Source of the DNA: Synergistaceae bacterium
GTDB lineage: Bacteria > Synergistota > Synergistia > Synergistales > Aminobacteriaceae
NCBI GenBank assembly: GCA_031267575.1
Contig: JAIRYN010000034.1
Coordinates: 1-45,271 of the forward strand
DNA: 45,271 nt
Direction of reading: 5' to 3'
Below, one piece after another: positions 5,418 to 45,271 of this stretch (within the stretch, counting starts at the first letter, position 1; each line of letters begins with the position of its first letter). Below the pieces are notes generated by a model. That model saw only the letters and a program-made list of their open reading frames with translations. It searched no databases and was not told the DNA's origin. The position numbers and the translations under genes were made by a program.

Positions 5418-7502
5418 CTATACAAACAGAGGTGCCATTACCAGAGCGACAACCGTCATGAGCTTGATAAGAATGTTCAGGCTGGGGCCCGCCGTGTCCT
5501 TGAAGGGGTCTCCCACCGTGTCGCCAACCACTGCCGCCGCGTGGTTGGGTGTGCCTTTGCCGCCGCAATTTCCCTCTTCGATGTATTTTTTCGCGTTATC
5601 CCAGGCTCCGCCTGCGTTGGCCATGAAAAGCGCCAACATGACTCCTGTGACAATCGCGCCTCCCAGAAAACCTCCCAGCGCCGCTTTGCCCAGGATCAAT
5701 CCAATAGCCAGCGGGGAAACCAAAGCCAGAATGCCGGGAATAATCATTTCTTTTAGGGCCGCGGCTGTGGAAATAGAGACACATTTTTCGTATTCGGGCT
5801 TGGCTGTTCCCTCCATGATGCCCGCGATGTCGCGGAATTGACGGCGCACCTCCGCGATCATAGACTGAGCGGCGCGACCCACGGCTTCGATACAAAAGGC
5901 GCAGAGCAAGAAGGGCAGCATTCCACCCAGCAACATTCCCACGATGACCTTGGGGTCCATCAGGTCAATGTGCGATAACTGGGCGGCTTGACTGTAGGCT
6001 ACAAACAACGCCAAAGCCGTCAAGGCGGCTGAGCCAATAGCCAAACCTTTCCCCATGGCGGCGGTCGTATTGCCGATGGAGTCCAGTTTGTCCGTGATTT
6101 TCCGTACATCAGGTGGAAGTTGGCTCATCTGAGCGATGCCTCCCGCGTTGTCGGCAATCGGACCATAGGCATCCACGGAAAGAGCGATGCCCGTGATAGA
6201 CAGCATTCCCACCGCCGCGCAGGCTACACCGAAAACTCCCGCTAGCCAGTGGCTGATCAAGATGGAAAGGACGATTAAAATTACGGGGCACACCAAAGAT
6301 TTCATGCCCAAGGAAAAGCCCGCCAAAATAACGGTGGCCGGACCGGTTTCGGAGGCGTTAGCTACGTCTTTGACGGGGGAGTAATCGCTTGACGTGTAGA
6401 GTTCCGTGGTGTAGCCGATCAAGACGCCCGCCAGAACTCCTGACGTCACGGCCAGGAAAATATGGAAGGTCTTGGTGAAGAAGCACAACAAACTCAAAAC
6501 GAAGGTGCCCAAAATCATGATTCCGCCGGCGGCGAAGATCCCCACCCTCAAGGCGAAAGCAGCGTCTCCTTCATGGATACGGTCCAAGATCTTTTTGACG
6601 CAACCGATCTTTCCGATATAGTGAAACGTCAAATCGACCCATTTTTCCAAGTAGCGGACCTTGGAGCTGATCAACAGGCAGCCGATGATGGAGGAGAAGA
6701 TACCCCAACCCGCCAGGAGCATGGGAAAAGCTACACCCCGAATTCCCAAGGCCACGCCTCCGTATAGGTCTGTGCTGATGAGTCCGATAGTCATGGCCGC
6801 GATGACGGAATTAACGTAGGACTCGAACAGATCCGCGCTCATGCCCGCCACGTCCCCAACGTTGTCCCCAACGTTGTCCGCGATGACCGCTGGGTTGCGG
6901 GGGTCGTCTTCCGGGATGCCCGCCTCGACCTTGCCCACGAGATCCGCGCCCACGTCTGCCGCCTTGGTGTAAATACCGCCCCCAACCCGGGCGAAAAGAG
7001 CGATGCTACTGGCTCCCATGCCGAACGCCGCTAAGGAACTCACGCTCAGGAAAAGATACGCTACCGCGATGCCGGCCAGACCTACGCCCACCACCAGCAT
7101 TCCCACGACACTGCCTCCGGAAAAGGCCATTTCCAGGGCTTCGCCCGGACTACGGGTAGCCGCAAAGGTCGTGCGTCCATTGGTCTGAGTCGCGACGTAC
7201 ATCCCTAGCCAACCTGTGGCCGCACTGCAAAGGGCTCCCAATAAAAAGGCAAAAGCAGGGCCGGCTCCGAAACCCACTTTCCACATCCCCAACAAAAGCA
7301 CGGTAACGCCGCCGACAAAACACGCCAGCCAAGTGTACTCTTTTTTCAAAAAGGCCATAGCCCCTTTGTGGATGATTTGAGAGAGTTCCATTATTCGTGG
7401 GTCATCCACCACAAAGTTCGTTATCTTTTGATGGACCAACCACGCGTAAAGAATCGCCACCACGCCCAGGGCAAAAGTTAACAATACCAATAAAATCGTC
7501 AC
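5418..7502 (-). CDS. hppA: Membrane-bound proton- or sodium-translocating pyrophosphatase
   Basis: 694-aa polytopic membrane protein carrying the [14 protein letters not shown] and DNAGGIAQM motifs typical of H+-PPases. Confidence 0.9.
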
Positions 7503-10595: not shown

Positions 10596-10617
10596 ACCTG
10601 GTCGCCTTTCGGCATTG

Positions 10618-10684
10618 TCTTCATTAATATTACCTTTATTAATATTGCCTTCATTAATATTACCTTCATTAAAAAATTGCCTTC
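10618..10684. repeat. Tandem repeat of about 16 bp with roughly 3.5 copies (ttcattaatattRcct) between moxR and the DUF58 gene
   Basis: Direct reading: cattaatattaccttt attaatattgccttc attaatattaccttc attaaaaaattgcc. Confidence 0.8.
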
Positions 10685-11627
10685 ATACGATGGTTGGTAC
10701 TTCCGAAAAAATCGCGCTCAGCACCTCGCGCTTAGTAGATCCCGATCCCTGGCGTAACTGTAAACGGTGGAGCAACACATCCTCCGCCATCACCTTTACG
10801 TCCTCAGGGATCACATAGTCTCGGTTCTGCATCCAAGCCAGAGTTTTGGCCAATTGCAGGAGCGACATGGCGCCCCGCGTGGAAATTCCGGCCGCAATAT
10901 TGGGAAAGACGCGGGTTTTTTCGGTTAGGGTCAGCATGTAGTCCAAAATCTTGTCGGAAACCATGACGCTGCGCTCAATGTCCGAGTGGATCCTCAGAAT
11001 TTCGTCAGGAGAAAACAAGGCCGAGATGTTTGAAAGTTTTTCTTTCTGGCTACCGGCTTTCAGTATTTCACGCTCGGCGGTTCTGGAGGGATAGCCAATG
11101 GAAACCTTCATCATGAAGCGGTCCATCTGGGACTCCGGAAGGGGAAAGGTTCCAGAGTGCTCCACGGGGTTTTGGGTGGCGACAATGAAAAAAGGCCGAG
11201 GTAACCGGTAGGTTTTTCCGTCGATTGTAACCTGCTCCTCCCCCATAGCCTCCAACAGGGCGCTCTGAGTTTTGGGTGTCGCGCGGTTGATTTCGTCCAC
11301 CAGTACCAAATTATTGAAAATGGGGCCGGGATGAAACTCAAATTCGCCCTTTTCCGCCTTGAAGATATTGAGTCCCGTGACATCCGTAGGTAAAAGGTCG
11401 TTCGTGCATTGGACACGACCGAAACGCAACCCTAGAGTTCGAGCCATGGCGATGGCCAAAGTTGTTTTGCCTAAACCGGGCAAGTCCTCCAATAAGAGGT
11501 GTCCATTTGAAAAAAAGCAGGCCATCATTTTTACTAAAACCCCGTCCTTGCCGTGCAACAAAGGCGAAAGATGCGCAAGCGCCTCCTTGATGCGAGGGTT
11601 GACCGCGAAAAAAGGAACATTAGACAT
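10683..11627 (-). CDS. MoxR-like AAA+ ATPase
   Basis: Walker A motif LLEDLPGLGKTTLA, a Walker B region, and a C-terminal MoxR lid. Sits in the classic MoxR-DUF58-transglutaminase gene order. Confidence 0.9.
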   Translation of the reverse strand: MSNVPFFAVNPRIKEALAHLSPLLHGKDGVLVKMMACFFSNGHLLLEDLPGLGKTTLAIAMARTLGLRFGRVQCTNDLLPTDVTGLNIFKAEKGEFEFHPGPIFNNLVLVDEINRATPKTQSALLEAMGEEQVTIDGKTYRLPRPFFIVATQNPVEHSGTFPLPESQMDRFMMKVSIGYPSRTAEREILKAGSQKEKLSNISALFSPDEILRIHSDIERSVMVSDKILDYMLTLTEKTRVFPNIAAGISTRGAMSLLQLAKTLAWMQNRDYVIPEDVKVMAEDVLLHRLQLRQGSGSTKREVLSAIFSEVPTIV

Positions 11628-23476: not shown

Positions 23477-23585
23477 CCTCCGGTCTTGTTCCGAAATTTT
23501 CTTGTTACTCGCATGGATAAATCTTCCTCGACAGATCTAATTGGTTCAACAGATCTAATTGGTTCCACAGATTGTCGAGCAATTG

Positions 23586-26500
23586 CTACAGATCCAATTG
23601 GTTCAGCAGATTGTCGAGCAACTGCTTTTTGAACTGCTCTTGAGCGTCTAAATCATCGTCGCCTCCGCCCGGACCGGTGGGAATCCTGAGGTTGAATCGA
23701 ATTTTTCTTTCGCTTTCCTTGCGCTGGGTGGTCGTGTCGTTGCGTAAAGGTAGATATTCCTCAATGGATTTATCGATGGTGAGGTTCAAAAGTTGCAACT
23801 CCTTCCAGCTCCCCTTGAGTTGGAAAGTGACGTCTTGGAAATCCCGCTCGGAGTAACCTACCAATTTGCTCACCGCCTGGCGTAGCAACTGGCCATTTCC
23901 CGCAAGGGACCCTGTCATGAACTGCAAAACTCCTTTCAGAGCTCCCAGCACCGTATTGAGAGCCTGAACGTCGAAGCGTCCTTTGCAAATCAGAGCCAAG
24001 TCCTTGCCCAACAGGCCCAGAGGACCGTTGATCGAGAAATATTTGTAAAGCGGGGCTCCAGGTTTGGCCGTGGCCTGAGTACCTGGATTCAACCATAGGT
24101 CGTTGCCGTCCCAAAAAAACGATCCCCGTATTTCCTCGAAAGAGATACGTCCGTCTTTGGTTATATTTTTGAGTATGTCAAACTCGTGGATGTACCCCTC
24201 GCTGGACCGGAAATCTCCATTGGCGAAGACCATCATCAAGGGTCCGTAATTGCCTTTCAACTGGACGTTGACGTCGGCACTGCCCACAATGGCCCCTTGC
24301 GCCATAAAGGGGTGGGCTGCCTGGCCAATATTCAGCCCGGAGATCTTTGCCGTTGCTTTCCATTGCTGATCCGGCATGTTGACATCGGCATTGATGTCGA
24401 TTTTTCCGCCATAAGCGACACCCGTGCCCTCCCGCACCGACGCCCGTCCCTCCGAGACCCGAATGGGGAGGAAGATGTCCCGCAACTCCACGCCGGCCAC
24501 CGAAAAGACCGGAAGCGTCAGCATGACATTGGCGACCGCCGGACCCCTGTTTCTTCGTCCGTTCATACGACCCGTAACGCGGGCCTTGACGTTTCCCGCG
24601 AACTGTCCTTTCAGGGAGGGCATTTTGGCCGACACCAACTGATCCAGGTCCAGAATACTGCTCTCAGCGGCATAGCCCCAACCTTCTTTATTGCGCTCCA
24701 TGTGTCCCTTGAGTGTCAAGGCCAAATCCCCCAAGCGCCCCGACGCGTCCATGTCGAATTTGCCCCTGGCGGGAGAGATGATTGTCAGCATCAGGTGGTC
24801 CACCAATGTTTCCTGGATGGTTAGGGGAGAGGTAACCTCCAAGGCCAGCTCCGGCCGTAGGGGTGATCCCCGAAGCGACAGGAATCCATCCAGATATCCC
24901 CCGACCCCTCCGTCCAGGCCAAATTGGGCAAGCAGAGACCGGATTTCGATCCCTTTTACCTTCATACCGATTTGCAGTCTTCCACGTCGCCCGAAAGTGA
25001 GATTGCCATTTCCCTCCAGGGCGCCTTCGTTGATTTTCGCCTTTACGCTGCGTACTCTCACATTTCGGGTCGTACCCGTTACGTCGAGGTAAAGATCACG
25101 CACGTCGGTAGAGGCCACCATGATCGCGTTCGATCGGAGGGTGGCCGAAAGCGCGGCGTTGCTAACGGCGCCCGATACCTTGAGAGTGCCCTCTACTTTT
25201 CCTGTCACGTCCATATCCCAATCCTGGGCGATGCTTTCCAGATCCAGGTTCGTCAACGCGCCCGATAGGTTTAAATAAGGTTCTCCATTCTTGGACAGAT
25301 CGACATCGCCGCGGAAAGACAAGGACCCGCCCGGTACCTGTAGCGTCGTCTCAGGAAGGTAAACCTTGTTGTTTTCGTATGTTCCCGACAACTTCACGTG
25401 CCTGAGGGGCACTCCCGCCACCTTGTTTTCGTTGCTTATGAGCGTAACCATGACCCGAGGTGATGTAAGTGTTCCCTGAACTTCCAACGTCACGTCACAG
25501 AGTCCTTCAACCTGACTCAACTCCGGGATGGATTGTGGATTGAAGCCTTTAAGGTTTCCCGCGAAGCGAAGCTCGGAGGTGGTCAGATCAGCGGCGCCCG
25601 AAAAATCCAAGAGGGCTTTGTCGATCCGAGCTTTCAGATCTTCCAGGACAACGGTACCTTTTTCGTAACGCATAGAGGCTGACAGAGCGTCGAAACGCCT
25701 CCCAAAAAGGGTAAAAGCCTGGGATCGCGCCTCGCCTCTCACGGCAAGATCGTTACCGAGGCTCACGATGTGAGCGTCCGCGTCCAAAGTTCCGGAGAGG
25801 TCCAAGGGAGCGAGGGCGGGAAATGCGGTCGCCACTAGGTTGGATTTCATTTCTTTGAGGGTGAACTTCAGGGTTGAGTGCCAGAGTGCGTTTGACGCGC
25901 TCCGGAGAACTTCGCCCGCCCCAAAGACTTTTCCCCCAAAGACCTCTCCGGTGCAGTCCACCGCCAAGTTCCAATTCGGAGAAAGGACAAGGTTTGCCCG
26001 CAGCCCTTTGACGACCTCCTTGCCTTCCACTTTCAATTCAGGCAAACGCATGAAGACCTTGCCCGCCACGGCTCCTCCTTGGTCGGCCGAGGTCCAGAAA
26101 TCCACCATTCCCCCTTCGCCCTCCAAGCTCACCCCTGGCGATAGAAGGCGTTCCAGTTTTTTCATGGAGGCATTTCGGACGCTTCCCCGGGCGAAAAAGC
26201 GATCTGTCACCGGATTTGGTCGCAAGTCGGCGGAGACCTTCAGCTCGATATCGCCCGCTCCGCTTTCCAGCTTGGCCTGCGAGACGGAGAAATCCCCGGC
26301 TTTGTACCGCCAAGGTACGGAGGCTTCCACCGGAAAACCCGCGACTTGCCCGTCCTTTAAACGCAGTGTGCCCCAAGCGCCCAGGTTTTCACCTGCCCCC
26401 ATCACATCGATTTGCCCATCGATCTCGCCGCGTCCCTCTACTTGAGAAAAAACCGCCAATAACTCGTTGAGTTTCACAGACTGGAGAGAACCCTTCACCT

Positions 26501-27260: not shown

Positions 27261-27487
27261 GATTTACGAGCGAAAGCATAAAAAGATTACTGAAAGGTCG
27301 CTAGTGGATAAGTGGATAAGTGGATAAGTGGATAGTGTGGACGACCTTCAAATTCCAAAAAACCAAGAGGCGAAAACCCTTTCTCGTCTTGGACGATAAG
27401 GATTTTATTTTCCGCGTAATCGCGACGTTATAGAGACATATGATCGCGCGTCTCTACAAAGCGTGACGCTCGTGTTAAAATTTCAAA

Positions 27488-29202: not shown

Positions 29203-29229
29203 AAATACGCTATCTTTCGTTAAGAGATC

Positions 29230-29263
29230 TGTAATTATTATTAGAGGTCGCTGTATTATACAG
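29230..29263 (+). terminator. Hairpin terminator candidate after the coiled-coil gene
   Basis: Near-perfect palindrome ttagaggtcgctgta-tta-tacagcgacctctaa with an AT-rich flank and no clean T-run. Confidence 0.4.
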
Positions 29264-29675
29264 CGACCTCTAATGCCGGTGGACAGCCGGCTCACAACAC
29301 AGGGAGGTGTTGCGAAATTATATTAACACGCATTTTATATAAGGTATACTATAATAAATCTTAGGATATGACGTAAAAATTGCTTAAAAATATTATAATG
29401 AAGCTATAATTAAAATAAAATAAATAAGAATGATATTTGAAACAGTATTAAAACTTACTTTGTTTTACATCTATCCGTGTCGCTATGTCGGTTGTTTGTT
29501 TTTGAGTAAATATTTTATCGTTTTGAAGCGAAAGATATCCCTGACGCTGACGGCGGATCCCTTCTATATGTTTTATGCGCATGCTTTATGCGCATGCTTT
29601 ATGCGCGATGTGTAAATGAAGTTAGTGGTCGCCTTGTTTTTGTCCCTGGTATTCCCTCTCTGAAGTTTTTATTTT

Positions 29676-29989
29676 TACGATAAAGCGATCCTCATCCAAC
29701 AGCTGAAGCCGTTGGATGAGGATCGCAACACCACCGTTGGCGGTGTTTGTTTTGTATTTGGTTTCTTGCCATATGTCTACTTTCATGTTAAACTCCTTTT
29801 ATGGCTTATCAACGTGAGATGCGGGGCGGAACACGACCAGGATATTAATGCGGTTGTAAATATTCTAAGAGTGGGAGCATCCACTCTTAGTGGGGGCATC
29901 CACTCTTAAAGGAAAAGACGTAAGACCGGTTTCAGTCGGCTGTTTTTGTCGATCTTATAATCCCATGACTTTAGTCGTGGGAGTATGTC
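29676..29989 (+). repeat. Copy B of the promoter-leader repeat cassette, oriented toward cobQ
   Basis: Inverted relative to copy A at about 90% identity. Contains a 19-bp internal tandem duplication (29869-29906) and the conserved hairpin cccatgac-ttta-gtcgtggg at 29962-29981. Confidence 0.85.
29766..29794 (+). promoter_or_regulatory. Sigma70-like promoter within copy B, likely driving cobQ
   Basis: TTGCCA, 17-nt spacer, TAAACT. It is preceded by a hairpin plus T-run (29727-29768) that overlaps the -35 element. Confidence 0.5.
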
Positions 29990-30022
29990 AAGTAAGGAGT
30001 TTGTGCGTAAGGAGTTTGTGCG

Positions 30023-31639
30023 ATGAAGGGTATCATGATTCAAGGAACCAGCAGCGACGCGGGTAAAAGTTTTTTGGTGACGGGGTTGTGTCGCGTTTTC
30101 TCGGACAGAGGTTACAGGGTTTGCCCTTTCAAATCTCAAAATATGTCGAATAACTCTTACGTGACAAAAGACGGTCTGGAGATGGGCAGAGCCCAGGCCG
30201 TGCAGGCCGAGGCGGCGCGCCTCGACCCCCAGGTTTTTATGAATCCCATTCTTTTAAAACCCCGCAACGATGCCACCTCCGCAATTGTCTTGATGGGGCA
30301 AGAATGTACAGACGCACGCGCTGATTACTACCGAGCCTTCACGATGAACGAAGGGCTCTCGACGGTTCGGGCGGCGCTGGCTCACATCGAGAAAAATTTT
30401 GAAGCGGTGCTGATCGAGGGAGCAGGCAGCCCGGTCGAGATTAACTTGAATGCTACGGAGATCGTCAATATGCGCGTGGCTCGCGAGGCGGACGTGCCCG
30501 TTATCTTGACGGCGGACGTGGACAGAGGCGGGGCCCTAGCCGCTTTGGTGGGAACCCTCGATCTTCTGGAGGCAGACCGCGATCGCGTCAAGGGCATCAT
30601 CTTCAACAAATTCAGGGGAAACCTGTCGCTTTTCGAGCCCGCGGTCCGCTGGACGGAGGAACGTACCGGAGTCAAAGTTCTGGGCGTGATGCCTTGGACT
30701 CCGGCGCGCATTGCCAGTGAGGACTCTTTGTCGATTCGCTGGAACGCGCGCTCGCCGAAGGGTTTTCTCGATAATGAGATAGATAATGGGATAAATAACA
30801 GGATAAATAACAGGATAGATAACAGGATAGATAACAGGATAGGAAGCGAAGGTTTGGTAATTGGCGTCATTCGCCTGCCCTATATCTCGAACCACACGGA
30901 TCTGGAGGCATTCGAGGCGGAACCCGATGTGGAGTTGATCGAGGTAGACACGCATACATCCCTCCGTCGAGTTGACGCGGTGATCCTTCCGGGGACCAAG
31001 AGTACGGTGCTGGACATGAAAGTACTGCGTGACTCAGGACTTGCCGGACGGCTCCTGGATTTTCACCAAAGAGGCGGGTATCTTTTCGGCCTATGCGGCG
31101 GATACCAAATGTTGGGGCAATACATCGACGACCGCTATTTGCGGGACAACGACACACTGAAGGAAATCGAGGGGTTGGGCCTGCTTCCCGTCGTTACGAC
31201 TTTTGGGGAGAAGAAAACCACCCGTCGCCGCGAAGGATGGACGATTCACCCCCTGTTCACCTCGAACGCTGCCAGGGTTGAAGGGTATGAAATCCACTTT
31301 GGGGAAACGCGCTCAGTGGGGGAGGGCAGAGGAGACGGTCTTTCGGAAAAGGAGCGTTTTTATCCCCTATTCGTCTTAAACGGCTACGAAGACGGCATGG
31401 CTGACCGAGAACTCCGCGTGGCGGGAACATACCTACATAATGCCTTTCACAACGATATTTTCAGGGCTTTCTGGTTAAATGCTCTGCGAAAAAGCAAGGG
31501 TTTGCCTGAGCGTTCTGTCACTGACACCACCGCGGCGAACGAAGAGGCATACGACGTTTTGGCGGCGCGGATGCGAGAGCACATCGACATAGATTATATT
31601 TTCACGTTGTCCGGCCTCCTCGATAGAAAGGAGCAATGA
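30023..31639 (+). CDS. cobQ: Cobyric acid synthase
   Basis: MKGIMIQGTSSDAGKSFLVTGLCR is the CobQ/CbiP N-terminal ATPase signature, followed by a C-terminal GATase-1 domain (LFGLCGGYQMLG). The linker carries an in-frame repeat insertion coding DNEIDNGINNRINNRIDNRIDNRIG. Confidence 0.9.
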   Translation: MKGIMIQGTSSDAGKSFLVTGLCRVFSDRGYRVCPFKSQNMSNNSYVTKDGLEMGRAQAVQAEAARLDPQVFMNPILLKPRNDATSAIVLMGQECTDARADYYRAFTMNEGLSTVRAALAHIEKNFEAVLIEGAGSPVEINLNATEIVNMRVAREADVPVILTADVDRGGALAALVGTLDLLEADRDRVKGIIFNKFRGNLSLFEPAVRWTEERTGVKVLGVMPWTPARIASEDSLSIRWNARSPKGFLDNEIDNGINNRINNRIDNRIDNRIGSEGLVIGVIRLPYISNHTDLEAFEAEPDVELIEVDTHTSLRRVDAVILPGTKSTVLDMKVLRDSGLAGRLLDFHQRGGYLFGLCGGYQMLGQYIDDRYLRDNDTLKEIEGLGLLPVVTTFGEKKTTRRREGWTIHPLFTSNAARVEGYEIHFGETRSVGEGRGDGLSEKERFYPLFVLNGYEDGMADRELRVAGTYLHNAFHNDIFRAFWLNALRKSKGLPERSVTDTTAANEEAYDVLAARMREHIDIDYIFTLSGLLDRKEQ

Positions 31640-37316: not shown

Positions 37317-37379
37317 ATCATTGATCCTCTTTTCATTGATCCTCTTTATTATATATTGATTATATATTGATTATATCAG

Positions 37380-37892
37380 TTATCTTTTGATCGCAAGAAC
37401 ACGGGGAGCAGCTATCAAAAACCAGACCGCGAACTCCTCCGGCGTTTTTCGCAGACGAGATGACAATTCGCCGAACTCGATCCACTTGGTCTCCATAATC
37501 TCATCCTCGTTCGCGCTCAATGCGCCGGAGTAGTCGGCAGCGAACACGTGATCGTACTCATGTTCATACAGGCAATCGTTGAACTTGTGCTCGTACACGA
37601 AGGAAAACAGCTCGACGGGCTTTATACCACGAACGCCGATCTCCTGCTCCAATCGACGAACCACGGCGAGTTCTGTCGACTCGTCCTCTCTTGGGTGAGA
37701 ACAACAGGCGTTGGCCCACAGGCCGCCAGAGTGGTATTTGCCCATCGCCCTTTGCTGTACCAGCATATATCCGTTATGATGAATAAACACCGAAAAAGCG
37801 CGATGTAGCTTCGGAGTCCTGTGAGCCTCCATTTTCTCCGCCGAGCCGATGGGCCGGTCAAACTCATCGACCAAAATAATTCTCTCCGTCAT
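37380..37892 (-). CDS. idi: Isopentenyl-diphosphate delta-isomerase, type 1 (Nudix)
   Basis: [38 protein letters not shown] closely matches the E. coli Idi core. Start overlaps the cysNC stop. Confidence 0.85.
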
Positions 37893-39817
37893 GCCCCTTC
37901 ACCCTCTAGAAAATGCACAATTCTCTCCGCCTCTTCTTCCGCGTTGCCGCTCCCGTTCACGACGAGTTCGGGATGTTCCGGGCGTTCGTATGGCGCGTTG
38001 ATGCCGGTAAAATTGGGAATCTCCCCGATTCTCGCTTTTTTGTAAAGACCTTTCGGGTCGCGCTGTTCGCAGGCTTCCAGCGACGTATCGACGAACACCT
38101 CGATAAATTCTCCGGGAGCGAACAGGGAGCGCGCGTATTCCCTGTCTTTTTGGAAAGGTGAGATAAACGCCACCAACACGATAAGGCCAGCGTCAATCAT
38201 CAATTTCGCCACTTCGGCCACGCGGCGGATGTTCTCCACCCTGTCTTCCTCGGTGAAGCCCAGGTCTTTGTTGAGCCCGTGCCTCACATTGTCGCCGTCC
38301 AGCACACAAGAACGCAATCCCATCGAAAAGAGCTTTTTGTCAACCAGATTCGCCACCGTCGATTTGCCGGAACCTGAAAGCCCCGTGAACCAAAGCACGC
38401 GAGGGGTTTGCCCCATCAGACGTGCTCTAGCCTCTTTCGTGATCTCGAACAAGTGCCATGTCACGTTTGCGGCCCTCCGCAAGGAATATCGAATCATTCC
38501 CGCGCCAACCGTGTCATTCGTGACGCGATCAATAAGGATGAAACCACCTAATTCCCTGTTTTCCGTGTAAGGTTCGTACACAATCGGTGTTCCGGTTTTG
38601 ATGTTGCCTATTCCGATTTCGTTCATAGCGAGGGTTTTGGCCGGTTCTATCGACAATGTTTCGACGCTTGTCTTGCCGCGTATTTCCGTCACGGTGGCCA
38701 ACACCGTCCGGTTCGATATCTTCAAAAGGTATTCGCGTCCGGGGAACAACCTGTTTTCGCTCATCCAGACTACGACCGCGCGGAAATGGTCCGTAACATC
38801 TGAAACAACCCGCGCGTCCGATAAAAAGTTGCCGCGGCTTATGTCCGTTTCTTTCGTAAGAGATATCTCCGCAGCTTCACCCTTTTTAGCCGCGTTTCGT
38901 TCTTTGCCGCTCACGATAAGCGACTTAACCGTATTTTTTTGACCCGACGGCAGAACGACAACATCGTCGCCCGTGCGTATCGTGCCCTCCGCGATTATGC
39001 CGCAGTAACCCCTAAAGCTCGCGCCGGGCCGGTTGACCCACTGAACCGCCATCCTAAATGGTTTTACCTTTTCTTTTAGCTTTTCTTTTAGCTTTTCTTT
39101 TTCGCCGCCCGGTTCGAGGGTTTCCAAATACTCCGCCAGCGTCGGACCACTGTACCACGGCGTATCGTCCTTACGCGCGAAAACGTTGTTCCCTTTTAGG
39201 GCAGAAAGCGGAATACAGGTCACGAAGAGTTCTCCCGTGTCGTGTTCCAGTTTTTTAATTTTTACCATTAAGCTCTCGTAGTCCTTCGATATTTCGTCGA
39301 AAATATCCCTCGACCATCCGACCAAATCCATCTTGTTCACCGCGAGCGCGATGTGGCGAATACCTAACAATACCGCGATGTACGTGTGCCTCACGGTCTG
39401 CGGCAAGATGCCGTTGCGCGCGTCAAGTAGAACAACGGCGGCCTCGCTGTTTGAAGCGCCGGTCACCATGTTTCTCGTGTACTGTTCGTGTCCCGGCACG
39501 TCTGCCACGATGAACTTCCTGTTTTTCGTTTCGAAATACCTATACGCCACGTCTATGTCTATGGTTATCCCCTGCTCACGTTCCGCCAAAAAGCCCTCCA
39601 TAAGAAGCGAGAAATCCAGTTCGCCGTCCATGTTTTTCTTCCAGCTTTCGCGGTGGAGGGAAGAGAGTTGATCATCAAAGAGACAGCCCGAATCATAAAG
39701 CAGCCTTCCTATCAGCGTGCTCTTTCCATCATCGACGCTACCGCAGGTTAAAAATTTCAGTTGCGTTTTATTTTCATGTGTTTTCTTTTTAGATTCGGAA
39801 AATGGCATTTTTAAAAA
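37889..39817 (-). CDS. cysNC: Bifunctional sulfate adenylyltransferase subunit 1 / adenylylsulfate kinase
   Basis: GTPase domain [16 protein letters not shown]...DVPGHEQY...NKMD, with a C-terminal APS kinase ([14 protein letters not shown]...). Start at MPFSESKKK (39817); the ORF track extends to 40054 through the cysD remnant. Contains an in-frame [10 protein letters not shown] repeat. Confidence 0.85.
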
Positions 39818-40560
39818 TACCCCTCCTGTTTTTTCTTCTCCATGGAACCGTCCTGGTCGTTGTCGATTAACCGGCCATGACGCTCCGAAAAACGCAATTG
39901 CCGTAACTCGTTGAAGACGTCCCGCGCGATAGCGGCGTTCGATTCGACAGCTCCTGTGAGCGGGTAGCAGCCCAGAGTCCTGAAATACACCATCCGAAAC
40001 TCCGGCCGTTCGTCCGGAACAAGTTTCATCCTGTCGTCGTCGATCATAATCCACGTGCCCTTGCGTTTCACTACCGGGCGCACGCTGGCGAAATAGAGCG
40101 GAACTATCGGAATATCTTCATCGACGATGTACTCCCACACATCATACTCCGTCCAGTTGGAGAGCGGGAACACACGCATGGTCTCCCCTGGCCCGAGGCG
40201 AGTAAGGGATTTATGCCTTCTTTGACGGCCTTTTCGTTCGTATAAGTGATCAGGCGCAACCCCAGTGTCTTTTCACTGTGGCGTCCCTGAAAGCGATCAT
40301 CTCTTTGAATTTCCACTCTTTGAATTTCCACGTCGTGTCTATATGCATAAGAGGCAACGGCGGCTTCGGTGGGTAAAAAGTCTTTATGGTGAGGCGAAGC
40401 ATGACCGACGAACCCTTATCTATGGATTGACTTACCGTTCTGCCCAACTTATGCAAACCTGAATAAATCCGATCAAATATGATCAGGAGCAAGTTTACTG
40501 TTGGCTTCCTGCTTCATCGAGGCCAGTTTCACCATCATCTCGCGACGACATAAAAACCGC
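39811..40560 (-). pseudogene. cysD: Sulfate adenylyltransferase subunit 2 (cysD), degraded by frameshifts and an internal deletion
   Basis: Three collinear fragments in different frames match CysD: [35 protein letters not shown].., then [17 protein letters not shown], then [18 protein letters not shown]...[14 protein letters not shown]...[12 protein letters not shown]. About 85 central residues, including the GGxRRDEE region, are missing. A 15-bp in-frame tandem duplication lies at 40300-40329. Confidence 0.8.
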
Positions 40561-40660
40561 AACATGAAGAAAACCCCTTATTAATTTATAATGATGATAA
40601 GCAATGAATGCCCGGAGGAACGTCATCCCCAATGTTTGGGTCTGCCCATGTTTTTGCTCG

Positions 40661-41389
40661 TTAATGAAAAGCTAAATCTCGCAGATCCGAGTACAATTTT
40701 TGGATATCGTCGGGCAGAACGTCCTCGCCAGAGTCAGGAAAGCGCGCCGACGCGGGTTCGTTCCAAAAAGAGGCAATATTGCGCCGCAGTGTTTCCAGAT
40801 CGATAGGTCGTCCGAGCCAGTTCAGTAGCTTGGCGAACGAATCAAGGGGTTCAAGGCAGAAGCGGTTGAAGTCGAAAATAAACGCGTCCATCCCCTCGGA
40901 GTTTTCGATAAAGCGTCGACTGTATTTGCCCCAGATACATAGGCCCTCGTCAAAATCCGTTCCGTAGCGCTTGCTCATTGAAGCCGCGACCTCGGCGGGA
41001 TGCCGTAAACAGAAAACCACCCGGCGAAGTTCCAGCCACACGTCCCGCCACGCCGCCAAAGTTAGGCAGAAGAGCGGGTCTTTGCAAAGTTCTCCGTCGA
41101 ACTCTTTCAAAAAGATCTGAAAATATTTTTGCCTTTTGGTGGCGAGCGCCATGATCTCGTCGCGCGGAGGTGGTGTAAAGATTCCCCAAAAAGGGCTGAT
41201 CTCGATTAGAAGCCGTTCGTTGACCGCGAAAAGCAAGTCGTGTTCAAAATGCCCCCTGGGGTTCATGGGCGTCGAGTTGCGCAGAACGCGGATATTGCGC
41301 CCCAGATCGAAACCGCAGAGCTCCAACAGGCCCGTGACGCAGCTTGTGCCGCTTCTCATCGGACCGGTAACGATGGTTGTTTCCCTCAT
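40661..41389 (-). CDS. Sulfotransferase family protein
   Basis: VTGPMRSGTS is the 5'-PSB (PAPS-binding) loop of sulfotransferases, on a roughly 240-aa scaffold. The start ATG overlaps the TGA of the upstream gene (ATGA). Confidence 0.7.
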   Translation of the reverse strand: MRETTIVTGPMRSGTSCVTGLLELCGFDLGRNIRVLRNSTPMNPRGHFEHDLLFAVNERLLIEISPFWGIFTPPPRDEIMALATKRQKYFQIFLKEFDGELCKDPLFCLTLAAWRDVWLELRRVVFCLRHPAEVAASMSKRYGTDFDEGLCIWGKYSRRFIENSEGMDAFIFDFNRFCLEPLDSFAKLLNWLGRPIDLETLRRNIASFWNEPASARFPDSGEDVLPDDIQKLYSDLRDLAFH

Positions 41390-43680
41390 GATTTTGCCTT
41401 TCCGTCCATAAGCGCAAGTGTCGCCCACGCGGAGCTCACGCCGCCCAGGTCCCGTGTGAAAAACAAAGTTCGCTCCCCGTCCTCCTCGAACCAGTAAGCG
41501 AGAATGGGCTCGCCTGCCCAGCCACCCGGCCCCTTGATTCTTCGCAGCCAGTCCCGACCCGGGTCAAGAGAGGAGGAGGAAGGCGACGCGACGGTCAGCG
41601 CCAGCAACGCGGCGGAAGTTTCGATGACGGAACCGCCCCACGCTCCCTCGTTTCCCTGGCCGCTTTGCAAGCGATAGACGGCCCGCGCCTCGACCTCCTT
41701 CAGAAGCTGGGAATCGTAGGGGGAACCTTCGAGGGAGGTAAAGAAACGCAGCGCGTACCAAATGGGGATTGTTTGTGAGGGAAACCACTTTCCGGGCCAT
41801 CCACCGCTCACTTGCTGGTTTCGCAGCAGATAATCGCGGCAGAGAGTAATTTCCTCCGCATAACGTTCAGGATCTATCCGCGTCAGCAACCATGCACAGA
41901 AGGCCGTTGCTGGGCAGTCCACGCCCCGCCAATAAGGCGCGCGCCCAGGCGCGTCGGCGGGAAGCGTGCCGAATCCCCCTTGTTCACGGTCAAAAAACAC
42001 GTCGACGAGCCTACGGCAACTTTCCCGCAAACACGTTCTATGCCTGCCGGTCGACAGCAAACCCTCCATAACGAGGGCACTATCCAAAGATGTAACGCCA
42101 TAATCCCTCTGATAGCCCCATAAACCGTCGACGGCCTCTTCCAGCAGATAACGCTCGGTTTCCCACGATTCTCCTTCGAGGAAAGACGTCTCGCCCTTTC
42201 CGGCCTTTTCTGCTTGAAGCAGAAGGCCATAATAAGCCACTGTACCATCGCGGAAAGTTTCGGTGAGTTGAGGGCCATTGCCGCCCATGCGGAGAACCGT
42301 GGTCTCGGCTAGAGGCATACGGCCAAAATCCACCGAAATCGGGCCGAAATCGTCTTTCAGGCAAAAAGCCGCCGCCCTGCGACCCGACGCTATCGCGGGC
42401 CACATGCCGTAAGGCAGCGCCGCGCCGTCCCACTCTGTATAATCCCCGGCCAAGACGACTCCTGGCATGGGACAAAGCCATGTCGCGGAAAAACCGCGAT
42501 AAGTCGACTCCTCGATAATGGGGCCGACTTCCGCCCAGCGCCGCGATTCCAGCAGAGAACAGTTCTTGACGGTAAATTCACCGACACTTGTCGCTTGCAG
42601 TTCCTCAATCATCATCCGCGTCAAATCCGCGTCGCTCATGCCTTCAGATGCCGCCATGCTTTCGCCCACAATGTAGCCTGTGACGACGACTTCGTTTTCG
42701 TTAGAAACGCCAGAAACGCCTGGAAGCTGATGGAAAATAAAGGTGTTGAAATGGCCCTGAGTGGAAACCAGATAGGACAATGCGCGCCGATTTTCGACAC
42801 GACAGTGGAGAACGACGGCGATTCCTCCACCGTAGCGGACGCGGCCGAGAAAATCGGAGGAGACGTTTTTGAATTCACTACATAATTTTTTAGCCTCAGT
42901 CGCTGGGACTGCTAGGATAATCTTTTGCGCGACGGCTTCTTCTTTCGCGCCGTTTCCGTTACGCCACAGAACTTTAACGGACTTGGAGCTTTGCCCTCCC
43001 ACCGAAAGACCTCGCTCAAGAGCCTCGGATTCTTGAGAATCTTTTTTGGGGACTAACTCGTACACGCGGCAAGCCGTTCGGATTTCTGCCCCGCCGCTCG
43101 CGGCTGTTAGGTTTGCGGCCATAGCCTGAATCATCGCTCCGTTTCCTCGCTGGAAATAATCTGCCCTGTGACGGAGGAGACAATCCCTGCGGCGGGTCGG
43201 AACAGCCTCGGTGGGTGTTCCGGGGTGGATGACGCGAAAGAAAGCCTTCATCGCCGCCCCCAGGTCTTCACCGATCATCGCCTCCTGTGGATTCGGCGAG
43301 GCGAGGAAAGACGATAGGCAGATCTGTTGCCGCGGCGCCGAGTTCAGCGAGCGAACGCAATCGACCACCGAGTCGCCGGTATGGAGCCGTCCCCGGTGAA
43401 ACAAACCCACGGGATTATCGTTCTCGTAGTGAGAACCCGCGTCCACGGGAAAGTCAAACCATTTGGGATTGAAAGCGAAAATCGACCCCGTTTCGTAAAC
43501 GATTCTATCCCGTTTCCCCGTGCGCACTTTACCGCCCAAACGGCCATCCGCTTCCAAGAGCAAAACTTTTTTTCTGGGTTTTCCCGTTTTCACGTTCAAA
43601 GAAACTTCGCAGGCGGCGGACAAACCCGCCAATCCGCCTCCCACGATGATCACGTCGTACTGCTCGTATTGTCGCGTCAT
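41386..43680 (-). CDS. Fusion protein: flavin-containing amine-oxidase/desaturase-like N-terminal domain plus squalene-cyclase/prenyltransferase-like repeat C-terminal domain
   Basis: N-terminus YDVIIVGGGLAGLSAA...LLEADGRLGGKV...GVVLAGDYT (amine oxidase FAD fold). C-terminus carries QW-type repeats QQVSGGWPGKW, QSGQGNEGAWGGS and KGPGGWAGEP, typical of terpene cyclase/prenyltransferase alpha-barrels. GGAGGTGA RBS before the ATG at 43680. Confidence 0.65.
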   Translation of the reverse strand: MTRQYEQYDVIIVGGGLAGLSAACEVSLNVKTGKPRKKVLLLEADGRLGGKVRTGKRDRIVYETGSIFAFNPKWFDFPVDAGSHYENDNPVGLFHRGRLHTGDSVVDCVRSLNSAPRQQICLSSFLASPNPQEAMIGEDLGAAMKAFFRVIHPGTPTEAVPTRRRDCLLRHRADYFQRGNGAMIQAMAANLTAASGGAEIRTACRVYELVPKKDSQESEALERGLSVGGQSSKSVKVLWRNGNGAKEEAVAQKIILAVPATEAKKLCSEFKNVSSDFLGRVRYGGGIAVVLHCRVENRRALSYLVSTQGHFNTFIFHQLPGVSGVSNENEVVVTGYIVGESMAASEGMSDADLTRMMIEELQATSVGEFTVKNCSLLESRRWAEVGPIIEESTYRGFSATWLCPMPGVVLAGDYTEWDGAALPYGMWPAIASGRRAAAFCLKDDFGPISVDFGRMPLAETTVLRMGGNGPQLTETFRDGTVAYYGLLLQAEKAGKGETSFLEGESWETERYLLEEAVDGLWGYQRDYGVTSLDSALVMEGLLSTGRHRTCLRESCRRLVDVFFDREQGGFGTLPADAPGRAPYWRGVDCPATAFCAWLLTRIDPERYAEEITLCRDYLLRNQQVSGGWPGKWFPSQTIPIWYALRFFTSLEGSPYDSQLLKEVEARAVYRLQSGQGNEGAWGGSVIETSAALLALTVASPSSSSLDPGRDWLRRIKGPGGWAGEPILAYWFEEDGERTLFFTRDLGGVSSAWATLALMDGKAKS

Positions 43681-43696
43681 GTCTCCGTCACCTCCG

Positions 43697-44902
43697 TCAT
43701 TGAATATTCCACGCTTGCCTCGCTTGCTTATCGGCGTCGGGTGACACACCCAGAATCGCGTTCCGCGGATTGAACAAGCTCAAAGCTAGACCAGGGCGGC
43801 TAACGGCGAGGTAAGCCTTTGCTTGCGTCAAAGTCCCCCGCGACAACGTGAGCTTCAGGTGGTGAATTTTCCTATAGGTATTGAGATAAACGACGCCGCC
43901 GGTGATGCGCTTGCGCAGAGGTGACGCAGTGATCCCGACGTAATCCTTCACGCCCTGCGCCTTTTCAGGCAAGCAGAGTCCCGCGCGCGTCAGTGCCTCA
44001 AGCAGCGGATGCCATTGCTTAGGGTCATCATCGAGCCATTCCTCGTAACACTCTACGCCAAAGACGTCGTCAACGCCTTCTTCCATCAGGTTGAAGCCGA
44101 AATTCAGATCACGGCAGAGCGGGAAAACGACTTCGAAGATCTTCCTCAACGATTCGATTTCGGCGGCGCCGGCCTCGGCCGTTCTAGTAGCGGACCGTAG
44201 TCTTGCGAGCCAAGTCAGAATTTTCCCTATGTCCATTCCTGCCTTCGACACGACTTTATCCACGCACAGCCTCATTCCAACGTCGTCCGCCCGGTCCAGC
44301 ATGAAACCAATCTGAAAAATCCTCGCTCCCTCAGGCAGGTCGTCGAAAAATTTTCGTAGCGCGCGCGCCTGGGAAGCGGGACGCTCGAACAGGGACATGA
44401 GCTCCCCGATCAGATCAAAGGTTCTCTCGTTGGACGTTTTCGGTTCGGGGCCGAAGAAAATATTGGGTTGCCGCAAAACCCTTTCCGCGTCCGCTCCAGC
44501 CAAATCCATTTCCAGCCAAAGGTTGTGGATATCGCGGTTCCATGGGTGGTCGAGATTGAGCCAATTCCGGGCGAGAACTCGAAGATTTTTCCAGACAGGA
44601 TAGACCTCGCACAGTTCGTCGATGGCAGAAGAGATTTCACCAGCAAGAAGAGCAGGACCGCAAGCCTCCTTCTTGATTTCAAACAAGATGTCGGAAAGGG
44701 GCTCCGGTTCGCCGAGACGGCACTCGAAACCCCAGAAGCTGGACAACTGTATCGGAAGGCGCGCGGCGACGCAGCGCATTTGCGCCCGGCATTCCTCTCC
44801 GAACAGACTTTCCGGCAGGGACGGCTCAATGTCATCCAAGACGTCGGTCAACGAAGGGACCGACGTCATAGCGGGCGCAACACGATTCGCGGGGCAATTC
44901 AT
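43697..44902 (-). CDS. Hypothetical protein of 401 aa with no recognisable family signature
   Basis: Long ORF in the operon between the precursor gene and the fusion enzyme. Acidic clusters FFDDLPEG and VDDVFGVECYEE are the only motif-like features. Confidence 0.55.
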   Translation of the reverse strand: MNCPANRVAPAMTSVPSLTDVLDDIEPSLPESLFGEECRAQMRCVAARLPIQLSSFWGFECRLGEPEPLSDILFEIKKEACGPALLAGEISSAIDELCEVYPVWKNLRVLARNWLNLDHPWNRDIHNLWLEMDLAGADAERVLRQPNIFFGPEPKTSNERTFDLIGELMSLFERPASQARALRKFFDDLPEGARIFQIGFMLDRADDVGMRLCVDKVVSKAGMDIGKILTWLARLRSATRTAEAGAAEIESLRKIFEVVFPLCRDLNFGFNLMEEGVDDVFGVECYEEWLDDDPKQWHPLLEALTRAGLCLPEKAQGVKDYVGITASPLRKRITGGVVYLNTYRKIHHLKLTLSRGTLTQAKAYLAVSRPGLALSLFNPRNAILGVSPDADKQARQAWNIQ

Positions 44903-44993
44903 TCATAAAGCCCTCATTTTAATATACGTGATGGACTTCTGAGCCCCTCACCATCTTGGACTAGAGAAAATCCCACTTTCTTTGTTTCCGTTT

Positions 44994-45271
44994 TTACCAA
45001 CGAGAGAGAGCCTTACCAATGGATATAATCACTGCTCCCCCGACGGCGGCACCAACGACAAGGGCAGCGGTCGATGTAACGATGCCACCCGCCACTTTTT
45101 CTAGTTCTTCTTCACTTAATTCGTCTTTCTTGTCCACTCCTACTTCCTTTGTCAGAGCTTCCGCGTCTTCTTTGGAGAACTCCAGGCCCAACGTTTTCGC
45201 ATAGGTAATCTGACCGTCTAGATCTCCTATGCCGATTTCTTTCGCCTTTTTGCGGACTTCCTCATTCTCTA
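44994..45271 (-). CDS. Nif11-like leader precursor peptide with a double-glycine site (N-terminus beyond window end)
   Basis: The ORF is open to the window edge. Leader: ...EEVRKKAKEIGIGDLDGQITYAKTLGLEFSKEDAEALTKEVGVDKKDELSEEELEKVAGG. Core: IVTSTAALVVGAAVGGAVIISIGKALSRW, then stop. The leader end LSEEELEKVAGG resembles the LSDDELEGVAGG of prochlorosin-type Nif11 leaders. Confidence 0.65.
   Translation of the reverse strand, partial: ENEEVRKKAKEIGIGDLDGQITYAKTLGLEFSKEDAEALTKEVGVDKKDELSEEELEKVAGGIVTSTAALVVGAAVGGAVIISIGKALSRW

Follow-up and report, generated by a model that had tools for sequence, protein, structure and literature searches.

We identified a decayed copy of cysD, the gene for the PP-loop subunit of ATP sulfurylase, on the minus strand of contig JAIRYN010000034.1 of a Synergistaceae bacterium (assembly GCA_031267575.1), where it lies directly upstream of cysNC, the intact gene for a fused CysN GTPase and CysC kinase, and downstream of a putative sulfotransferase gene. 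The stretch analyzed, hereafter the window, is this single 45,271-bp contig of a metagenome-assembled genome (MAG), and statements on the absence of sat or of another cysD refer to these 45 kb. With a probability of roughly 0.9, positions 39811-40426 hold a real cysD pseudogene that arose recently in evolutionary terms. We count the homology of the remnant to cysD, its lesions, its synteny with related loci, the intactness of its neighbors, and the recency of its decay as established. In this enzyme (structure 1ZUN), CysD, with its PP-loop, carries out the adenylation of sulfate, which is driven by the GTPase CysN. The cysD of the window is dead, with neither a start codon nor an N-terminus, no intact PP-loop, the central third gone, and the remaining sequence in 3 frames.

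The cysD remnant and its lesions

The remnant was read on the minus strand across 39811-40602 by three-frame translation, by tblastn with the closest intact CysD protein (P0001), and by DNA alignment with the intact cysD genes of 4 related loci, L081 (JGI 3300042636 Ga0466703_426323), L082, L083, and L092 (ENA ERZ28641791 scaffold_938); L081, L083, and L092 are from uncultured Synergistaceae. The 3 approaches agreed that the remnant is spread over 3 reading frames, as the initial annotation had held when it described cysD as 3 out-of-frame fragments. That annotation had also called for a comparison with the orthologous loci of relatives, and it is against these 4 loci, each with an intact and syntenic cysD, that the following features were defined, given here in the direction of transcription.

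40427..40660, minus strand: block of ~234 bp in place of a 22-bp spacer and cysD codons 1-31 (115 bp in relatives); 43% GC, against 52% for the window
40269..40426, minus strand: 5' fragment of the remnant, codons 32-79, in the third frame; 39/53 positions identical to P0001 residues 32-79 in tblastn
40409..40426, minus strand: mutated PP-loop, TCC ATA GAT AAG GGT TCG, reading SIDKGS in place of the SIGKDS of homologues; the 2 altered columns are near-invariant across 106 intact CysD proteins
40301..40330, minus strand: in-frame 15-bp tandem duplication, TGGAAATTCAAAGAG x2 (WKFKE x2); Tandem Repeats Finder (TRF) gives period 15, 2.1 copies, and 100% identity
40267..40268 (about), minus strand: 2-bp insertion with a frameshift at codon 79, from DNA alignment
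40204..40266 (about), minus strand: middle fragment of the remnant, codons ~79-99, in the second frame; 18/22 positions identical to P0001 residues 78-99 in tblastn
40203..40204, minus strand: junction of a 208-bp deletion that removed codons ~100-169 and shifted the frame, from DNA alignments with L081, L082, L083, and L092
39811..40203, minus strand: 3' fragment of the remnant, codons ~170-299 and the TAA stop; 73% identity over residues 150-299 of P0001 in tblastn
39811..40179, minus strand: open reading frame (ORF) of 122 amino acids (aa) within the 3' fragment, aligning with residues 200-325 of 1ZUN_A (E=3.5e-41)

The surviving parts are 73-79% identical to the closest CysD proteins, which come from uncultured Synergistaceae. 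Pfam PAPS_reduct matched 2 of the fragments, with E=7e-14 and, for the 5' fragment, E=3e-07, and the NCBIfam CysD models matched the C-terminal fragment at E=3e-53, so that the remnant is not a chance match. Further, the remnant keeps the conserved C-terminal end of CysD (...KKKQEGYF), and its stop is separated by 2 nt from the ATG of cysNC. It thus shares with the CysD family (PF01507 PAPS_reduct; TIGR02039/NF009214; 1ZUN chain A) both homology and a place directly upstream of cysN(C), but differs in not being one ORF of ~300 aa, in lacking the first ~31 residues and residues ~100-169, and in scoring under every full-length cut-off. The 122-aa fragment reached 181 bits with NF009214 (cut-off, 413), 177 with TIGR02039 (396.6), and 164.7 with NF003587 (195). 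CysD proteins carry the motif S-x-G-K-D-S, which is broken in the remnant (SIDKGS), and the conserved GGARRDEE...KER stretch falls inside the 208-bp deletion. The central gap, previously put at about 85 residues, amounts to 208 bp, or about 70 residues. An intact cysD in the same context in L092, L081, L083, and L082, together with frame-breaking lesions and the loss of essential motifs, makes the remnant a unitary pseudogene.

The 15-bp duplication, already noted in the first reading of the sequence, is real, being recovered both by TRF and by alignment, and is not present in any of the 4 orthologues. As an in-frame event that is part of a contig-wide habit of duplication, it is by itself no sign of decay. 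The 122-aa ORF has no deposited protein, unlike CysNC and the sulfotransferase; the missing entry suggests that annotators already treat cysD as a pseudogene.

Upstream of codon 32 the original sequence can no longer be followed. The block 40427-40660 is 35-45% identical to the orthologues, against 78% from orthologue to orthologue in the same region. Smith-Waterman alignments of the block with the upstream regions and cysD 5' ends of the relatives gave scores within the range of shuffled sequences, and blastn and tblastx searches against the same regions found no match. Positions 40427-40560, which had been taken for the N-terminal piece of cysD, are therefore unrecognizable as such. The sole trace of the original is TAATAAGGGG-N8-ATG at about 40563-40583, where a 10-nt motif resembles the ribosome-binding site of the L083 cysD. 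A scan of 39600-40900 for promoters and terminators returned chance-level results only. A single deletion taking the sulfate ABC transporter genes and the 5' end of cysD, as the L081 arrangement might suggest, was considered and rejected, as in L092 the sulfotransferase gene is directly followed by an intact cysD.

Age of the decay and selection on the neighboring genes

Apart from its lesions, the remnant has 75-85% DNA identity to its orthologues, equal to the identity among the orthologues themselves; cysD was therefore inactivated recently when compared with the split of these lineages, in agreement with the recent inactivation proposed at the outset. We counted 27 lineage-specific substitutions in the remnant and 20-32 in the intact lineages. 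By codon position, those of the remnant were distributed 7/8/12, no different from the intact lineages and with third positions saturated, which is what a recent decay would produce. The protein-level test covered 87 near-invariant CysD columns, in which the remnant deviates 5 times, compared with 0-2 deviations in 105 of the 106 intact homologues. Two of the 5 changes hit the PP-loop (G to D, D to G); the others are A to T, F to L, and R to Y.

The partner gene was examined in the same way, and the first of the following features is the intact gene, the second a duplication within it.

37889..39808, minus strand: cysNC, intact fusion of CysN GTPase and CysC adenosine 5'-phosphosulfate (APS) kinase, 639 aa; 870 bits with NF004035 (cut-off, 715)
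39551..39562, minus strand: 6-bp tandem duplication, ATAGAC x2, in cysN, adding ID to the switch-I/G2 motif GITIDVAYR and appearing as an insertion relative to 1ZUN_B

CysNC encodes the Pfam domains GTP_EFTU, GTP-eEF1A_C, and APS_kinase, aligns end to end with 1ZUN_B (E=2.6e-118) as well as with APS-kinase structures, and is annotated by both NCBI and JGI as an intact protein of 639 aa. The earlier statement that it is intact thus stands, with 870 bits and 3/212 deviations, and only its length of 643 aa needed correction. The gene has its own ribosome-binding site (GGAGGGG) and ATG, both intact. Its product is 77-80% identical to the CysNC proteins of L081, L082, L083, and L092, as these are among themselves; all relatives from a scan of GTDB genomes had at most 57% identity. 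Across 212 near-invariant columns (an alternative set holds 173), with 120 CysN(C) sequences compared, CysNC deviates 3 times, within the range of 2-5 in its Synergistaceae relatives. At the invariant-site rate of the remnant, ~12 deviations would be expected (Poisson P=0.002). A direct comparison of the deviation rates of CysNC and the remnant by Fisher test gave p=0.049 with the 212-column set and p=0.12 with the 173-column set. These small numbers hint that cysNC may have stayed under selection after cysD was released from it.

The switch-I/G2 motif is nevertheless altered in the window. GITIDVAYR is kept in 117 of the 120 CysN(C) sequences, and the ID duplication is unique to the window, also among 85 locus-derived sequences. 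The oddities named for the GTPase half of CysNC are this duplication, D71E, and L73F, the last 2 being among its 3 deviations at near-invariant columns, and the motifs of the APS-kinase half are standard. The ID duplication may be the first lesion in an orphaned GTPase domain. Separately, a 12-bp repeat of 3.3 copies (39062-39101, minus strand) falls in the linker that joins CysN domains I and II, an insertion that sets the window apart from 84 other CysN(C) sequences.

Proposed course of events and its consequences

The explanation that we favor begins with the ancestral arrangement sulfotransferase-cysD-cysNC-idi, which L092 has kept intact. In the lineage of the window, cysD then took several independent hits: the first ~31 codons and the spacer were replaced or scrambled, 2 substitutions destroyed the PP-loop, a 2-bp insertion broke the frame, and a 208-bp deletion took out the catalytic center and shifted the frame again, with the in-frame 15-bp duplication added to the same gene. 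As no active CysD can be made from the remnant, the CysN GTPase would have no partner to activate and the operon could not turn sulfate into APS, so that the CysC domain would lack a substrate unless APS were supplied from elsewhere. It is on this reasoning that ATP-sulfurylase activity would be lost and sulfation of the product of the neighboring gene cluster affected. The initial annotation had called the supply of 3'-phosphoadenosine 5'-phosphosulfate (PAPS) broken, which is a fair statement for the cluster-encoded route; for the whole cell it goes further than a single contig can show. The apparent continued constraint on cysNC and the sulfotransferase gene implies that cysD was lost recently. 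Either these partner genes do not yet visibly show relaxed selection, or the APS-kinase half still serves, fed with APS of another origin. The further proposal that the cluster is becoming cryptic finds no support in the other genes, with 0/41 deviations in the sulfotransferase and 3/212 in CysNC, as in relatives.

The second of these possibilities is the alternative that survives best, and it is a sub-case of the pseudogene reading: cysD is dead and sulfation persists, with an unlinked Sat or a second CysDN providing APS and cysNC being kept for its APS-kinase domain. We regard it as possible, though unlikely. Consistent with it are the number of deviations in CysNC, which at 3/212 is below the prediction from the remnant rate (Poisson P=0.002), the confinement of the CysNC oddities to the GTPase half next to standard APS-kinase motifs, and the full conservation of the sulfotransferase. 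However, the window contains neither sat nor a second cysD, the 2 NCBI Synergistaceae CysD proteins among the best hits come from other MAGs as judged by accession, and recent decay can by itself explain healthy-looking partner genes. The more specific form, in which CysNC would be kept for the APS-kinase half only, with APS from an unlinked ATP sulfurylase and with the orphan GTPase starting to degenerate (ID duplication, D71E, and L73F), is a little more doubtful again.

Reliability of the contig sequence

An assembly or consensus artefact, with a real cysD that is intact and strain variants that were collapsed or made chimeric in the contig, is improbable. The source is a metagenome-assembled contig, no independent copy of the deletion junction was found in JGI metagenome contigs, and cysNC is called in 2 pieces in automated assemblies of some relatives, which could be errors of this kind. 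Against this, 5 kinds of lesion lie within 850 bp and include nonsynonymous changes at near-invariant residues, which indel-type errors cannot create, and the genes on both flanks are joined in the order found in L092. Elsewhere, uninterrupted ORFs cover the contig, and 9 of them are identical to deposited NCBI proteins (LBJ36_*, MDR1378353-376). The tandem duplications inside genes, too, are all in frame. We found 23 arrays of short (7-39 bp) near-perfect tandem duplications in the contig, or 5.1 per 10 kb; the density was 0.9 per 10 kb across 75 other loci, and shuffled sequences gave about 0.2 per 45 kb. Array periods were divisible by 3 in 8/8 cases inside genes and not divisible by 3 in 7/16 cases elsewhere. 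The in-frame periods of the genic arrays indicate real mutations filtered by selection rather than assembler noise, and suggest a genome prone to duplication or slippage in which selection removes frame-breaking events.

Examples of these arrays are at 6852-6879, 10614-10686, 23531-23626, 27303-27334, 30778-30842, 37318-37376, and 39062-39101. The array at 30778-30842 on the plus strand consists of 5.4 copies of a 12-bp unit, GATAGATAACAG, in frame inside the gene for cobyric-acid synthase (cobQ). Upstream of cobQ, the 820-bp stretch 29203-30022 has no ORF of at least 120 aa and holds 3 tandem arrays. An Rfam scan of the whole window found no family reaching its gathering score, the cobalamin riboswitch included, despite several genes of cobalamin biosynthesis.

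Least likely by far is that the fragments still yield a functional split or truncated CysD: the 122-aa ORF does start with ATG and end at the native cysD stop adjoining the cysNC start, but the PP-loop is mutated, ~70 central residues including the GGARRDEE region and the N-terminus are gone, neither of the 2 upstream pieces has an in-frame start codon of its own, and even the largest fragment, at 181 bits, stays below the cut-offs of 397-413.

Some points weigh against the pseudogene reading as a whole. The 26-mer that spans the junction of the 208-bp deletion was not found in JGI metagenome contigs, and as the sequence is that of a single MAG contig, its consensus could be a minority or chimeric allele. 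The evidence for relaxed selection that substitutions provide is thin, consisting of 5 events, with codon-position counts that are uninformative. A further point is the 5' block at 40427-40660, which the alignments traced neither to cysD nor to the upstream genes of relatives.

The putative sulfotransferase gene and the peptide-type cluster

Beyond the remnant, cysNC, and the 5' block, we identified the following genes around the locus.

40661..41389, minus strand: 242-aa protein of a sulfotransferase family by family-level matches, annotated as hypothetical (LBJ36_04950)
41386..44902, minus strand: 2 cluster genes, for a 787-aa flavin amine-oxidase protein and for a 401-aa protein with no family assigned (Pfam)
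44994..45191, minus strand: 65-aa precursor peptide with a double-glycine leader; Bacteriocin_IIc, 29.1 bits (cut-off, 27.1), and TIGR03949, 28.8 bits (21.5)
37380..37892, minus strand: idi, isopentenyl-diphosphate isomerase, the conserved downstream neighbor of cysNC (NCBI name; same position in L092 and L083)

On its own, the 242-aa protein had no match in Pfam, NCBIfam, or the PDB. Among the members of its family, 27/34 matched Pfam Sulfotransfer_3 (best E=2.5e-08) and 6/34 Sulfotransfer_1, and in a search of the PDB with the family profile the strongest matches were all sulfotransferases (best E=4.7e-4), as were 25 of the 27 matches at E<=1. With these family-level matches, it is reasonable to call the protein a putative sulfotransferase, and it carries the invariant motifs R-S-G-x-S and R-x-P. 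It deviates at 0 of 41 near-invariant positions and no decay is visible, which agrees with the earlier view that the downstream sulfotransferase is intact. Identity to its counterparts in the intact orthologous loci is 76-81%; a metagenome scan with the window protein returned 1 locus, at 54% identity. A sulfotransferase gene was also found alone beside a DDE-transposase fragment, without cluster or cys genes, at L091:9134-10705.

The 787-aa protein has a weak squalene-cyclase-like match in its C-terminal part, and both it and the 401-aa protein have full-length counterparts with 66-73% identity in L081, L092, and L094. The contig ends 80 bp beyond the precursor gene, and the cluster of the window is thereby cut after 1 precursor, with 3-5 carried by relatives. 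The same peptide-type cluster recurs across uncultured Synergistaceae and is also conserved in relatives further away (window, 40661-45271 on the minus strand; L081:1-6129; L094:1-7366; L090:4384-10708). It comprises several Nif11/double-glycine-leader precursors, a protein 373-440 aa long, a flavin amine-oxidase protein whose C-terminus faintly resembles squalene cyclases, and a sulfotransferase-family protein, and is often followed by genes for sulfate uptake and/or cysD-cysNC; L094 has a radical-SAM gene in addition. Literature searches found no description of this Synergistaceae cluster, and the cluster is more interesting than the pseudogene beside it.

The intact loci L092, L081, and L083 share with the window the same amine-oxidase gene and the order sulfotransferase-cysD-cysNC-idi, and differ from it in an intact CysD of 299 aa. 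In L092, the order from the amine-oxidase gene onward through sulfotransferase-cysD-cysNC-idi is that of the window, with the 299-aa cysD starting 22 bp after the sulfotransferase gene. L081 differs by additional sulfate ABC transporter genes (Sbp, a fused CysTW, and CysA) between sulfotransferase and cysD, its full order being precursor peptides, a 440-aa protein, an amine-oxidase/cyclase-like protein, the sulfotransferase, the sulfate ABC genes, intact cysD, and cysNC. L083 differs by its idi, which follows cysD-cysNC and has an internal deletion of residues ~78-147 (L083:4911-5197). The initial annotation had spoken of a PAPS supply for the cluster, and a PAPS module dedicated to it fits the conserved adjacency in relatives, whether as sulfotransferase-cysD-cysNC or with sulfate ABC genes between sulfotransferase and cysD-cysNC. 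In 3 further loci (L085:10878-12754, L087:10900-12721, and L089:3852-5673), cysNC is called as 2 ORFs, which could reflect real frameshifts or assembly errors.

Relation to known sulfation modules and significance

Modules for PAPS supply beside sulfotransferases are familiar from NodPQ with NodH in rhizobia and from CysDNC with Stf sulfotransferases in mycobacteria. The window likewise pairs CysD and CysN/CysC-type genes with a predicted PAPS-dependent sulfotransferase rather than with genes of sulfate reduction; unlike in those systems, its CysD half is inactivated and a peptide-type cluster probably supplies the acceptor. Pseudogenes of cys genes have already been reported in other bacteria, as a literature search showed, and the cysD of the window is a pseudogene of a well-known gene that decayed in place, an instance of ordinary gene decay of an already known kind.

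For users of this MAG, sulfation of the cluster product is not to be assumed, and for expression of the cluster the PAPS module is better taken from a relative with an intact cysD, such as L092 or L081. If the APS-kinase half of CysNC were indeed what is being kept, the locus would represent a natural halfway stage between fused CysNC and an APS kinase that stands alone, within a Synergistaceae cluster for a sulfated peptide-type product. In these Synergistaceae, cysD-cysNC is associated with a peptide-type cluster and a sulfotransferase and not with sulfate-reduction genes, and parts of this module are being lost in several lineages.

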